Positions 1 to 3,606 of a stretch of 64,000 nt of DNA are shown piece after piece. Source of the stretch: a phage. The position numbers were made by a program, and so were the translations under genes. Positions within the stretch are counted from its first letter, which is position 1, and each line of letters opens with the position of its first letter. The stretch lies in assembly GCA_012178725.1 (NCBI GenBank), contig GCA_012178725.1_3030.1, one strand, 5' to 3'. The notes under the pieces were generated by a model, which searched no databases, was not told where the DNA came from, and saw nothing but the letters and a program-made list of their open reading frames with translations.

Positions 1-1821
1 ATGAACGTTAACGGTTCATTTGAATCATCCGGTGTTACTGCTGGAAATAGAGGAGTTCACACAACAGGCGAAATTTCATCTGGAGCAGTGAATGCTCTTC
101 GCATTTGGAATGCAGATTATGGAGCTATTTTTAGACGTTCAGAAGGTAGTCTTCATATTATTCCAACTGCTTATGGTGAAGGCAAAAATGGTGATATCGG
201 TCCACTTCGTCCATTTAGTATTGCTTTGGATACTGGTAAGGTTGTTATTCCAGATTTAGAATCAAGTTATAACACGTTTGCTGCAAATGGCTACATTAAA
301 TTTGCTGGTCATGGCGCTGGCGCTGGTGGTTATGATATTCAGTATTCACAAGCTGCTCCTATTTTCCAAGAAATTGATGACGACGCTGTAAGCAAATATT
401 ATCCTATTGTTAAACAGAAGTTTCTAAACGGTAAATCCGTTTGGTCTTTAGGTACTGAAATTAATTCGGGTACATTCGTTATTCATCATCTGAAAGAAGA
501 TGGATCGCAGGGCCATACATCTCGTTTTAATCAAGACGGTACTGTTAACTTCCCGGATAACGTTCAGGTCGGCGGCGGTGAAGCTACTATTGCTCGTAAT
601 GGTAACATCTGGTCTGATATCTGGAAAACGTTTACTTCAGCAGGCGACGTAACTAATATTCGCGATGCTATTGCTACTCGCGTTGCCAAAGAAGGCGACA
701 CGATGACCGGCACTCTTTGGATTAATAAAGATGCCGCTGGAATAGTTCTTAATCCTCCTTTGACCAGTGATTCATCATTTATTCGTTCTGATACGGCCGG
801 GGCCAATAATTGGTATATTGGTAAAGGCGGTGCCGACAATGGTCTAGGTTTTTACAGTTACATTACACAAGGCGGTGTATACATAACAAATACCGGTGAA
901 ATATCGCTTTCTCCTCAAGGACAAGGAACATTTAATTTTAATAGAGACCGCCTTTATATAAATGCTAGTCAATGGGTTGCACATAAATCTGGCGCTTGGG
1001 GCGACCAATGGGGCTTAGAAGCTCCTGTATTTGTGGATTTTGGTAGTGTCAGTAATGACTGCTATTATCCTATTATTAAAGGAAAATCTGGTATTACTAA
1101 CGAAGGATATTTTTCCGGCGTAGATTTTGGTATGCGACGCATTACTAATACATGGGCACAAGGTATTATTCGTGTAGGTAATCAGGAAAACGGTTCAGAC
1201 CCACAAGCCATCTATGAATTCCACAGTAACGGTACTTTTTATGCCCCTAGCCTACTTAAGAGCAACAGAGTATCAGCAGGTGGCGGTGACCCTGTATGGG
1301 CCGGGCCATGTATTGTTCTTGGCGATAATGACACAGGTCTAGTTTGGGAAGCAGATGGTATTTTCAACGCATATGCAAACGGCCAAGGTGTATTCAGTTT
1401 TAGAGCTGGTCTCGCACAAACATTCGGTAACGTAGCGTTAAACGTTAACGCAGGTATGTATGTTCGTGATAACATTGATGTTAACGACGTTTATATCCGT
1501 TCTGATATTCGTTGTAAGTCAGAAATTAAGCTTATTAAGAACGCTCAAGAGAAATCTAAACTCTTAGGCGGCTATACTTATCTGCTTAAAAACTCTGTTA
1601 CAGACGAAGTTAAACCATCTGCAGGTTTAATTGCTCAGGAAGTTCAAGAAGTATTGCCTGAACTTGTTTCTGAAGATAAAGAGACCGGACTGCTTCGTTT
1701 GAACTATAACGGTATTATCGGTTTAAATACTGCTACAATCAACGAGCATACAGATGAAATCAAGGAATTGAAATCTGAAATTGCCGAATTGAAAGCATTA
1801 ATTAAATCATTGATAAAATAA
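1..1821 (+). CDS. 37: Long tail fibre distal subunit gp37, C-terminal part (ORF runs off the 5' window edge), with a C-terminal intramolecular-chaperone-like module
   Basis: 606-aa frame open from base 1; C-terminal ...GGYTYLLKNS...GLIAQEVQEVLPELV... then a heptad-like tail; lies directly upstream of a gp38-type adhesin and holin t as in T-even phages. Confidence 0.75.
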   Translation: MNVNGSFESSGVTAGNRGVHTTGEISSGAVNALRIWNADYGAIFRRSEGSLHIIPTAYGEGKNGDIGPLRPFSIALDTGKVVIPDLESSYNTFAANGYIKFAGHGAGAGGYDIQYSQAAPIFQEIDDDAVSKYYPIVKQKFLNGKSVWSLGTEINSGTFVIHHLKEDGSQGHTSRFNQDGTVNFPDNVQVGGGEATIARNGNIWSDIWKTFTSAGDVTNIRDAIATRVAKEGDTMTGTLWINKDAAGIVLNPPLTSDSSFIRSDTAGANNWYIGKGGADNGLGFYSYITQGGVYITNTGEISLSPQGQGTFNFNRDRLYINASQWVAHKSGAWGDQWGLEAPVFVDFGSVSNDCYYPIIKGKSGITNEGYFSGVDFGMRRITNTWAQGIIRVGNQENGSDPQAIYEFHSNGTFYAPSLLKSNRVSAGGGDPVWAGPCIVLGDNDTGLVWEADGIFNAYANGQGVFSFRAGLAQTFGNVALNVNAGMYVRDNIDVNDVYIRSDIRCKSEIKLIKNAQEKSKLLGGYTYLLKNSVTDEVKPSAGLIAQEVQEVLPELVSEDKETGLLRLNYNGIIGLNTATINEHTDEIKELKSEIAELKALIKSLIK

Positions 1822-1851
1822 TAAAAGGGCCTTCGGGCCCTGGAGGTTTTT

Positions 1852-2631
1852 ATGGCAGTAGTAGGAATTCCTGGTTGGATTGGGACTTCAGCCGTCGCTG
1901 AAACAGGCCAGCGCTGGATGTCAGCGGCCTCTAGAGAATTGCGTCTAGGGAACCCATCTTGGATGTCACAATTCGCTGGACGCTCAAGAGAAATTATTCA
2001 CACGCTTGGAGCAGACCATAACTTCAATGGTCAATGGTTTCGTGACCGTTGTTTTGAAGCCGGCGGTGCTCCTATAGTGTTTAATATCACAGGCAACTTA
2101 GTATCATATTCTAAAGACGTTCCTTTATTCTTCATGTATGGTGATACTCCTAACGAATATGTTACTTTGAATATTCATGGTGGTGTTCATATGTGGGGCC
2201 GAGGTGGTAATGGTAGCGTAAATGGAAGCCCAGGCACTAATGGTGGCGACGTAATCCAAAATGATATTGGTGGACGACTTCGTATTTGGAACTATGGCGT
2301 TATTGCATCAGGCGGCGGCGGTGGTGGTGCAGTGTCATTACAGAATAGCTGGGCACCAAATGCTACAGCAGGTGGCGGTGGTGGTAGACCGTTTGGCATC
2401 GGCGGAGGCGGCGTTAATTGGCCGGGTGGTAATGCTAGTTATGACGCGCCTGGCGGTGCCGGTTACACTTCCCAATTCGGCGGAGGCAATGGCGGTGATG
2501 CTGGAGGTCGGGGTGGAGATGGATGGGGTAATCACTTATCTAGATCCGGCGGTGGTGCTCCAGGTAGAGCGGTATTCGGTTCTTCACCATCATGGGGTGC
2601 AACAGGCACGATCTACGGTTCCTGGATTTAA
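1852..2631 (+). CDS. 38: gp38 receptor-recognising adhesin (T2/T6 type) with glycine-rich motifs
   Basis: 259 aa; conserved N-terminus [11 protein letters not shown]...RWMS...[35 protein letters not shown] then poly-Gly blocks ([20 protein letters not shown]) separating short variable segments; 30 bp after gene 37 with GGAGG SD. Confidence 0.85.
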
Positions 2632-2650
2632 ATGGTAATACCTCTCAGCA

Positions 2651-2658
2651 TATAAATA
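2651..2658 (+). promoter_or_regulatory. Late promoter (TATAAATA) for holin t
   Basis: Exact TATAAATA 19 bp upstream of the t start, followed by AAGGAGG. Confidence 0.6.
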
Positions 2659-2676
2659 TCCTTAAAAGGAGGGTCT

Positions 2677-3333
2677 ATGGCAGCACCTAGAATATCATTT
2701 TCGCCCTCTGATATTCTATTTGGTGTTCTAGATCGCTTGTTCAAAGATAACGCTACCGGGAAAGTTCTTGCTTCCCGGGTAGCTGTCGTAATTCTTTTAT
2801 TTATGATGGCGATTGTTTGGTATAGGGGAGATAGTTTCTTTGAGTACTATAAGCAATCAAAGTATGAAACATACAGTGAAATTATTGAAAAGGAAAGAAA
2901 TGCACGCTTTGAATCTGTCGCCCTGGAACAACTCCAGATAGTTCACATATCATCTGAGGCAGACTTTAGTGCGGTGTATTCTTTCCGCCCTAAAAACTTA
3001 AACTATTTTGTTGATATTATAGCATACGAAGGAAGATTACCTTCAACAATAACTGAAAAATCACTTGGAGGATATCCTGTTGATAAAACTATGGATGAAT
3101 ATGCAGTTCATTTAAATGGACGTCATTATTATTCTGACTCAAAATTTGCTTTTTTACCAACTAAAAAGCCTACTCCCGAAATAAACTACATGTACAGTTG
3201 TCCATATTTTAATTTGGATAATATCTATGCTGGAACAATAACCATGTACTGGTATAGAAATGATCATATAAGTAATGACCGCCTTGAATCAATATGTGCT
3301 CAGGCGGCCAGAATATTAGGAAGGGCTAAATAA
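2677..3333 (+). CDS. t: Holin t
   Basis: 218 aa, near-identical to remembered T4 holin (MAAPRISFSPSDILFGVLDRLFKDNATGKVLASR...); one N-terminal TM segment; AAGGAGG SD and TATAAATA late promoter upstream. Confidence 0.95.
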   Translation: MAAPRISFSPSDILFGVLDRLFKDNATGKVLASRVAVVILLFMMAIVWYRGDSFFEYYKQSKYETYSEIIEKERNARFESVALEQLQIVHISSEADFSAVYSFRPKNLNYFVDIIAYEGRLPSTITEKSLGGYPVDKTMDEYAVHLNGRHYYSDSKFAFLPTKKPTPEINYMYSCPYFNLDNIYAGTITMYWYRNDHISNDRLESICAQAARILGRAK

Positions 3334-3606
3334 TTATTTGTTTGTATACATTTCTAAATATCTATATACACCCTCAAAACCCTCGTTGAATTCGTCGATG
3401 AGGGTTTTCTTATCTTCTTGAGTTAATTCAGAAACAATTTTACGGAATGAATTCTGATTTAATTTTCTACCTTCATGCGTTACTCCAATCTCATTCAGAA
3501 ATGCAATAAAATTAGCACGATTCTCAACAATATCTTCTCTGGAAAATTTAATCAAAATAGACGCAACAGTAATAATTTCACGAACTGTATCAATGTTTTT
3601 ATTCAT
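3334..3606 (-). CDS. asiA: Anti-sigma70 factor AsiA
   Basis: 90 aa, matches remembered T4 AsiA (MNKNIDTVREIITVASILIKFSREDIVENRANF...). Confidence 0.95.
   Translation of the reverse strand: MNKNIDTVREIITVASILIKFSREDIVENRANFIAFLNEIGVTHEGRKLNQNSFRKIVSELTQEDKKTLIDEFNEGFEGVYRYLEMYTNK

Follow-up and report, generated by a model that had tools for sequence, protein, structure and literature searches.

Gene content of the locus

The window (the whole stretch of phage DNA that we analyzed, 64,000 nucleotides) opens with the distal end of a long tail fiber of the T2 type, not the T4 type, in a Tequatrovirus genome; the genes are ordered 37-38-t-asiA...motA, and the backbone is ca. 97% identical to Tequatrovirus genomes. 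Both fiber genes lie where an earlier note, made from the sequence alone, had placed their open reading frames, and its description of a host-range module comprising a gp37 with a chaperone-like C-terminus and a glycine-rich gp38 is borne out by Pfam matches for both proteins. Neither Rfam nor a tRNA scan gave a match anywhere in the window. The main features are the following:

1-1821, plus strand: C-terminal fragment of gp37, 606 aa; open reading frame with its 5' end cut by the window edge
1-1500, plus strand: mature part of gp37 (long tail fiber distal subunit), fragment aa 1-500; from the open reading frame and homology
1486-1518, plus strand: predicted autocleavage site DVYIR/SDIRCK; from alignment to the S16 and fPS sites
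1501-1821, plus strand: predicted C-terminal intramolecular chaperone (IMC, Peptidase_S74) of gp37, 106 aa plus stop codon; from PF13884 and 6F45_A
1852-2631, plus strand: gp38, T2-type long tail fiber tip adhesin, complete, 259 aa; from Pfam, PDB and alignments
2197-2628, plus strand: specificity domain of gp38 from GRM1 to the end, 144 aa, predicted OmpF type; from identity to typed adhesins
2677-3333, plus strand: holin gene t, context only and outside the host-range module; Pfam Phage_holin_T, E 3e-116

Only the C-terminal ca. 56% of gp37 is present because the window begins 1431 nt into the gene, as judged from its homolog in phage AlbertHofmann (Bas47), a gene 37 of 3252 nt, and the ATG at position 1 encodes an internal methionine. 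The 5' part of the gene thus lies outside the window, and aa 1-500 of the fragment correspond approximately to aa 478-977 of a protein of ca. 1083 aa. Across its 606 aa, the fragment is 94% identical to Bas47 gp37, and it matches PHROG 1699, "long tail fiber protein distal subunit" (E 1e-168). Residues 436-500 align with the gp37 tip of Salmonella phage S16 in PDB 6F45_A, and the last ca. 65 aa of mature gp37, ending in ...NDVYIR, are the predicted tip for the docking of gp38.

Architecture of the gp38 adhesin

Gene 38 comes directly after gene 37, which encodes the predicted cleavable tail. The product of gene 38 matches the Pfam families GP38 (PF05268; 278.7 bits, E 5e-83) and Gp38_N (PF21721; 74.3 bits, E 8e-21; curated cut-off 25 bits) as well as PHROG 2056, "tail fiber protein; host specificity" (E 2e-109). 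Matches to the structures of the PP01 gp38 receptor-binding domain (PDB 9V85; E 8e-73) and of S16 gp38 (PDB 6F45_D; E 6e-50) further agree with the earlier proposal of a long T2-type adhesin built from an attachment domain and glycine blocks. Glycine makes up 25% of gp38 overall and 35% of aa 110-259, with runs at aa 154-159, 174-178, 184-187, 210-212 and 233-235 that are far beyond chance and fit the published layout of five glycine-rich motifs (GRMs), variable segments (HVS) and a conserved C-terminus (PMC3157838). Here, five invariant glycine blocks frame four variable segments, with all segment borders read from the alignment by us:

aa 1 to ca. 45: N-terminal attachment domain (W9, W22, W37)
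up to aa ca. 115: beta-helix part
aa 116-121: GRM1
aa 122-153: HVS1
aa 154-159: GRM2
aa 160-173: HVS2
aa 174-182: GRM3
aa 183-209: HVS3
aa 210-222: GRM4
aa 223-232: HVS4
aa 233-240: GRM5
aa 241-259: conserved C-terminus

The three tryptophans of the attachment domain are invariant among the 11 adhesins that we aligned, and a role of conserved tryptophans in docking on the gp37 tip has been described for S16 (PMC7917993).

Predicted receptor

Over its specificity domain, gp38 is 95-99% identical to the adhesins of seven phages for which OmpF dependence has been demonstrated by experiment, i.e., Bas38, Bas46 and Bas47 (receptor given in PMC8594841 and its supplement), fPS-2 and fPS-90 (PMC7917993), FL33, and RB51 (bioRxiv 10.64898/2026.04.02.716166), as compared with 46-55% identity to adhesins of the FadL, Tsx, OmpA and OmpC types (T2, T6, Bas45, S16 and PP01). 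Alignment to adhesins of typed specificity therefore allows the variable segments to predict a receptor, as had been expected in the earlier note, and the sequence of these segments indicates that the reversible primary receptor is almost certainly the E. coli porin OmpF. Such near-identity is strong but not absolute evidence because a single substitution in HVS3 can retarget an adhesin of this type to OmpW.

The alternative that survives best, though we consider it unlikely, is that the architecture is unchanged but that small loop differences direct the adhesin to another porin such as OmpW or OmpC or to another variant of the OmpF loops, or change its host range. In RB51, Q206L alone switches the receptor of gp38 from OmpF to OmpW (bioRxiv 10.64898/2026.04.02.716166), but the glutamine is retained at the equivalent HVS3 position here (Gln208; CAA, nt 2473-2475), and there is no difference from RB51 (100% identity) anywhere in aa 127-259, a stretch that takes in HVS2 to HVS4 completely and HVS1 for the most part. 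Two substitutions, Thr122Ser and Asn126Ser, set the window's gp38 apart from all seven typed OmpF binders, yet both are conservative and located at the border of GRM1 and HVS1. A weak tolC effect, also seen for the OmpF phages of the FL series, speaks for this alternative, but the independence of the seven OmpF-dependent phages that have 95-99% of this domain in common argues against it.

The Ser122/Ser126 pair is shared with NHEP10, for which no receptor was found, and, going by 98.5% identity, it is probably also present in PECP20 and CAU_ECP01, which were propagated on O157:H7. With the precedent of a single change retargeting RB51, this variant might recognize OmpF with other loop alleles, or a further receptor, though we see little chance of that; if it did, host range would not be predictable from the typed OmpF binders.

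A predicted self-cleaving chaperone at the end of gp37

Immediately beyond the predicted fiber tip, aa 501-556 of gp37 match Pfam Peptidase_S74 (PF13884) over profile positions 1-57 of 58 with 46.5 bits (E 4.6e-12; gathering cut-off 22 bits). The two motifs quoted in the earlier note, GGYTYLLKNS and GLIAQEVQEVLPELV, both fall within aa 501-606, and this tail ends in a predicted helix with the heptad-like EIKELKSEIAELKALIKSLIK. PDB 6F45_A, which comprises the tip and IMC of S16 gp37, is matched by aa 436-606 with E 4e-30 and by the tail alone with E 9e-24 (phmmer against PDB). S16 gp37 was the only significant match in this single-sequence search, which did not reach the EndoNF and T5 pb1 chaperones and gave, in the motif GLIAQEV, a weak, borderline match to the ICA domain of MYRF (7DC3). 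In PHROG, the tail finds matches at the very C-terminus of more than 20 tail fiber families that otherwise differ, and Peptidase_S74 is likewise found by Pfam on the gp37 tails of T2 and T6 but not on T4 gp37. An AlphaFold2 model of aa 486-606, computed from the single sequence with no alignment, had a mean pLDDT of 45.9, too low to back the fold on its own, and sequence homology to the 6F45_A construct takes its place.

The predicted cleavage site DVYIR/SDIRCK aligns with DLNVS/SDRRIKK of S16 and DVYIR/SDGRLKI of fPS (PMC7917993), so that the predicted scissile bond follows Arg500 (nt 1498-1500) and precedes Ser501 (nt 1501-1503). Ser501, Arg504 (nt 1510-1512) and Lys506 (nt 1516-1518) correspond to the catalytic serine, the conserved arginine and the lysine at position +5, and the S, D, R and K of the motif S-D-x-R-x-K are invariant across 12 gp37 tails of three allele types. 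A Ser/Lys(+5) dyad with an oxyanion arginine is the mechanism of endosialidases and MYRF (PMC3742443). S16 gp37 cleaves off its own last 113 residues at the aligned serine, which exposes the docking surface for gp38 (PMC7917993; PMC7289586), and gp37 of T2 and T6 is processed in the same way according to a passage of PMC3157838 that cites Drexler 1986. The family match, the structural match and the intact Ser/Arg/Lys motif uphold the earlier proposal of a tail resembling a self-cleaving chaperone, with 106 aa found where ca. 100 had been claimed, and the precedents of T2/T6 and of S16, the closest structural homolog, support by analogy its suggestion that gp37 would be processed ahead of gp38 binding.

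It is very improbable that the S74-like tail instead stays in the virion as an inactive or uncleaved chaperone, with gp38 attached elsewhere or only transiently. Cleavage in this phage is deduced from homologs, and position +4 is a cysteine in this allele where others have leucine or isoleucine, but no variation is seen in the Ser/Arg/Lys triad or in the DVYIR strand ahead of it, the S16 and T2/T6 homologs are cleaved, and the cysteine allele is also found in two phages that are viable and OmpF-dependent, Bas47 and Bas38.

Comparison with other long tail fibers

The T2/T6 gp37/gp38 system is the classical one and reportedly goes back to Drexler, Riede and Henning in 1986-1989. Gene order and the Peptidase_S74 tail on gp37 are the same as at our locus, and in T2/T6 the C-terminal cleavage is followed by capping with gp38 (the system is also treated in Trojet et al. 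2011, PMC3157838). T2 and T6 differ from our locus in their tip and IMC alleles, with 28-35% identity across the final 199 aa, and in their loops (49-55% identity), T2 using FadL/OmpF and T6 using Tsx. A literature search for a cryo-EM structure of T2 gp38 with OmpF or FadL found none.

For S16, the complex of gp37 and gp38 at the fiber tip (Dunne et al. 2018; PDB 6F45) is described in PMC7917993 and PMC12892980. Both phages share a gp37 tip with a C-terminal IMC and a cleavage serine at the aligned position (44% identity over the tail), and both have a gp38 with a tryptophan-prong attachment domain, a beta-helix and a polyglycine-II sandwich of GRMs and HVS loops. The two differ in that the S16 loops bind Salmonella OmpC (48% identity between specificity domains), in the strand before the cut (DLNVS in S16, DVYIR here) and in the length of the IMC (113 aa versus 106 aa). 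Among relatives of the OmpF type, the gp38 attachment domain and gp37 tip at our locus represent the Bas47/Bas38 allele, whereas Bas46, fPS and FL33 carry a T6-like allele and RB51 a third one, neither of which was found here.

Endosialidase IMCs (K1F endoNF; MEROPS S74) belong to the same Pfam family and share with the tail of our gp37, as does the MYRF ICA, the Ser/Lys(+5) dyad with an arginine, the C-terminal position and the role of a self-removing sensor of trimer folding. Unlike in endosialidases, the IMC at this locus sits on a thin fiber and not on an enzymatic tailspike, and the predicted cleavage would also create the docking site of a separate adhesin.

In phage T4, the corresponding genes likewise lie between gene 36 and t, at the same place in the genome, but the tip of T4 gp37, which has Collar and Phage_fiber domains and no S74 domain, binds the receptor itself, and T4 gp38 is an unrelated chaperone of 183 aa that is absent from the virion. 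That our gp38 might be such an assembly chaperone is suggested by annotation strings in some homologous GenBank records ("long tail fiber assembly chaperone/catalyst"), but this reading is refuted at the sequence level and can practically be dismissed, given the lack of similarity to T4 gp38 (BLASTP, best E 2.1), the strong matches to Pfam adhesin families and adhesin crystal structures, and the RefSeq record of T4 itself, which calls the "gp38" of the T2 subfamily unrelated and the adhesin.

Proposed mechanism of fiber tip maturation

Taken from the sequence, it is very probable that the S74 chaperone cleaves itself off gp37 and that the OmpF-type gp38 caps the tip exposed in this way. The gp37 protein would be produced as a precursor in which the 106-aa IMC nucleates trimerization of the fiber, starting at the C-terminus. 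After folding of the trimer, Ser501 would cut the Arg500-Ser501 bond, with Lys506 serving as the base and Arg504 placed at the oxyanion, and departure of the chaperone would leave ...NDVYIR as the mature fiber end. We infer from homologs that the flat trimeric tip, now exposed, would be capped by a single molecule of gp38 (a 3:1 stoichiometry) that docks with its N-terminal domain through Trp9, Trp22 and Trp37. The glycine-rich motifs of gp38 would pack as a polyglycine-II sandwich and expose the four variable loops toward the cell surface, where these loops, being of the OmpF allele, would engage OmpF as reversible primary receptor.

Loci of this kind are known, and the present one is an unremarkable example that adds no new mechanism. 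For this group of phages, both the self-cleaving S74 tail of T2-type gp37 and the polyglycine adhesin are textbook knowledge. T2 gp37 processing (1986), the S16 gp37-gp38 structure (2018) and OmpF-type gp38 alleles (2021-2026) are already established. The value of the sequence is practical and not conceptual: the OmpF prediction helps to pick phages for cocktails and to anticipate resistance through loss of ompF or ompR, while the predicted cleavage site and the module borders are useful for fiber engineering, with the rule that gp38 should be exchanged from HVS2 onward and that its N-terminus should continue to fit the gp37 tip.

Codon divergence and intergenic elements

Compared with any one of seven full-length relatives that we aligned (NHEP10, Bas47, Bas38, Bas46, fPS-2, fPS-90 and FL33), gene 38 has 58-78 synonymous codon differences. 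Identity to the best matches is 87% at the nucleotide level versus 94-98% at the protein level, and we rejected recoding or another oddity behind this gap because all OmpF-type gp38 genes differ mostly by synonymous codons (26-78 synonymous and just 1-23 non-synonymous between one another).

Three short elements lie between and downstream of the fiber genes:

1826-1841, plus strand: intergenic hairpin AGGGCC-UUCG-GGCCCU directly 3' of the gp37 stop codon; stem kept across alleles
1842-1846, plus strand: ribosome-binding site of gene 38, GGAGG; from sequence, following the hairpin
2651-2658, plus strand: TATAAATA box with T4-type late promoter consensus upstream of holin gene t; from sequence

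In its 56-nt context, the hairpin is not significantly more stable than shuffled sequences (z = -1.5). The better argument for it is conservation across alleles, where the stem persists through different sequences (GGGGC-UUUG-CCCC and GAGGGC-UUCG-GCCCUC). The sequence of the late promoter box is conserved in fPS-2, where the same position is annotated as "predicted late promoter".

Layout of the locus

The window opens (1-3333) with three consecutive plus-strand ORFs:

1-1821, plus strand: C-terminal part of gp37, 606 aa (PHROGs "long tail fiber protein distal subunit", E 1e-168)
1852-2631, plus strand: gp38, 259 aa (Pfam PF05268, E 5e-83; PF21721 Gp38_N, E 8e-21)
2677-3333, plus strand: holin T, 218 aa (Pfam, E 3e-116)

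Homologues of asiA, arn and motA follow downstream on the minus strand, giving the canonical T-even order 37-38-t-asiA...motA, and Tequatrovirus genomes share ~97% identity with the remainder of the window. The earlier note gave correct coordinates and motifs, with one point to amend: gene 37 lacks its 5' part. The window starts 1431 nt into the 3252-nt homologous gene 37 of AlbertHofmann (Bas47), leaving only the C-terminal 606 of ~1083 aa, and the ATG at window position 1 codes for an internal Met. Scans of the entire 64-kb window (1-64000) found no tRNA genes and no Rfam matches at gathering score. The locus is an ordinary example: for each of its elements, a close counterpart has been studied experimentally.

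Receptor prediction

It had been proposed that the variable segments (HVS) of gp38 would predict the receptor, and alignment with adhesins of experimentally shown specificity bears this out, making OmpF the very probable receptor. By tblastn, gp38 is 98.8% identical to that of NHEP10, 97.7% to Bas47, 97.3% to Bas38, 95.0% to Bas46, 94.2% to fPS-2, 93.0% to FL33 and 92.3% to fPS-90, and by alignment 91% to RB51. OmpF is required by Bas38, Bas46 and Bas47, confirmed by complementation for Bas47 (PMC8594841, text and supplementary table), and is the receptor of fPS-2 and fPS-90 (resistant mutants and complementation; PMC7917993) and RB51 (RB-TnSeq and mutagenesis; bioRxiv 10.64898/2026.04.02.716166); FL33 is dependent on it (PMC12032242). 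From the first glycine-rich motif (GRM1) to the end (144 aa), window gp38 is 95-99% identical to these seven OmpF phages, versus 46-55% for other classes: T2 (FadL/OmpF) 55%, PP01 (OmpC) 53%, T6 (Tsx) 49%, S16 (OmpC) 48% and Bas45 (OmpA) 46%.

Window and RB51 gp38 do not differ from aa 127 to the end. In RB51, Q206L in HVS3 is necessary and sufficient for switching from OmpF to OmpW (bioRxiv 10.64898/2026.04.02.716166), and the window retains Gln at this position (Gln208, CAA, nt 2473-2475). The only gp38 residues absent from typed OmpF binders, Ser122 and Ser126 (versus Thr and Asn), are conservative changes at the GRM1/HVS1 border common to NHEP10.

Two deposited records touch on the same codon. 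In fPS-2 (L006, LR215722), gp38 codon 208 (2622-2624, corresponding to window 2473-2475) reads CNA, ambiguous at the second position of a Gln codon where A-to-T equals the Q206L change; the stock could be a mixed Q/L population. Throughout this locus the GenBank record of RB68 equals RB51 and has Gln, in contrast to the RB68 stock of the 2026 preprint.

Architecture and naming of gp38

The earlier description of gp38 as a glycine-rich adhesin agrees with its Pfam matches (GP38/Gp38_N) and with end-to-end alignments to S16 gp38 (6F45_D, E 6e-50) and to 9V85 (E 8e-73), the PP01 gp38 receptor-binding domain (PMC12892980). Glycine makes up 25% of the protein and 35% of aa 110-259, with runs at aa 154-159, 174-178, 184-187, 210-212 and 233-235. 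Across 11 aligned gp38 sequences, W9, W22 and W37 are invariant in the N-terminal attachment domain, and five invariant glycine-rich motifs surround four variable segments ahead of a conserved C-terminal end, a plan already published (PMC3157838; PMC12032242).

Window gp38 has no similarity to T4 gp38 (best E 2.1), which rules out a T4-type "assembly chaperone/catalyst". Homologues are labelled "long tail fiber assembly chaperone/catalyst" in several GenBank records (e.g., MH992122, PQ572755, KM407600 and OR525701); given the missing relationship, this name of T4 gp38 has been wrongly transferred, a widespread annotation error for T2-type adhesins.

The gp37 tail and a proposed mechanism

The gp37 tail, previously noted as chaperone-like, indeed matches Pfam Peptidase_S74 ("chaperone of endosialidase") at aa 501-556, scoring 46.5 bits (cut-off 22; E 4.6e-12). 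Over its last 171 aa, gp37 matches the S16 gp37 construct (PDB 6F45, chain A; E 4e-30), and over the last 116 aa alone the match has E 9e-24; for this shorter stretch the MYRF ICA domain gives a borderline match over GLIAQEV. Peptidase_S74 is also found in the gp37 tails of T2 (E 5.5e-16) and T6 (E 1.4e-10), whereas T4 gp37 lacks it and has Collar and Phage_fiber domains instead. The window's gp37 tail further has matches at the very C-termini of >20 PHROG tail-fibre families that are otherwise unrelated, which is what a portable chaperone module would show. AlphaFold2 run on a single sequence gave a model of too low quality for use (pLDDT 45.9).

Twelve gp37 ends (last 199 aa; window, NHEP10, Bas47, Bas38, Bas46, fPS-2, fPS-90, FL33, T2, T6, Bas45 and S16) comprise three divergent tip/tail alleles but retain one motif, (N)DVYIR-S-D-x-R-x-K, in which Ser, Asp, Arg and Lys do not vary (12/12). 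It reads DVYIR|SDIRCK in the window (Ser501, nt 1501-1503; Arg504; Lys506), leaving 106 aa beyond the predicted cut. In endosialidases and MYRF, Ser and the Lys five residues on form the catalytic dyad, Arg stabilises the oxyanion and the site is competent only once the trimer has folded (PMC3742443). S16 gp37 autocleaves its last 113 residues at the aligned Ser (DLNVS|SDRRIKK), uncovering the gp38 docking surface (PMC7917993; see also PMC7289586), and its authors predicted a DVYIR|SD... cut for fPS phages (PMC7917993). T2 and T6 behave alike, with a C-terminal cut in gp37 preceding attachment of gp38 (Drexler 1986, cited in PMC3157838).

The identities of the genes and loops, the domain assignments and the intactness of the catalytic motif are direct observations; judging from homologues, the gp37 tail would chaperone trimer folding together with gp57A, as in established T-even biology, and then excise itself at Arg500|Ser501, one gp38 would cap the exposed tip, and its loops would attach reversibly to OmpF, followed by engagement of LPS by the short fibres.

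Allele modules and selection

Alleles of the gp38 N-terminal domain travel with those of the gp37 tip/tail in three groups (window, NHEP10, Bas47 and Bas38; Bas46, fPS-2, fPS-90, FL33 and T6; T2 and Bas45), with RB51 gp38 showing one more N-terminal form. Such lock-and-key co-variation was described earlier by Trojet et al. (PMC3157838). The OmpF-type C-terminal domain occurs across N-terminal groups. The co-variation agrees with the recombination point "from HVS2 onwards" of engineered gp38 swaps (bioRxiv 10.64898/2026.04.02.716166).

Pairs of OmpF-type gp38 genes (window 1852-2631 and relatives L001 and L004-L009) differ by 26-78 synonymous versus 1-23 non-synonymous codons (72 and 3 between window and NHEP10), which indicates very strong purifying selection on the "hypervariable" segments within one receptor class.

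RNA and promoter elements

Three elements accompany these genes:

1826-1846 region: GGGCC-UUCG-GGCCC tetraloop hairpin directly 3' of the gp37 stop codon, abutting the gene 38 Shine-Dalgarno GGAGG
2651-2658: late-promoter box TATAAATA upstream of holin t, where fPS-2 annotates a late promoter
3376-3408: terminator-like hairpin (14-bp stem) within the 3' end of convergent asiA, corresponding to an annotated terminator of fPS-2 and fPS-90

Other gp37/gp38 alleles have hairpins in the first position with different stems (GGGGC-UUUG-CCCC, GGGGG-AAAUG-CCCCC and GAGGGC-UUCG-GCCCUC), which argues for a conserved RNA structure, putatively a weak terminator or an element for mRNA stabilisation or processing.

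At the opposite end of the gp37 fragment, aa 2-84 (window 1-250) give a sub-threshold match (21.8 bits, cut-off 27) to Pfam Gp34_trimer, the trimerisation domain at the C-terminus of proximal fibre protein gp34, along with matches of E ~4e-4 to PDB 4UXE and 5NXF; this likeness suggests a shaft domain common to gp34 and gp37.
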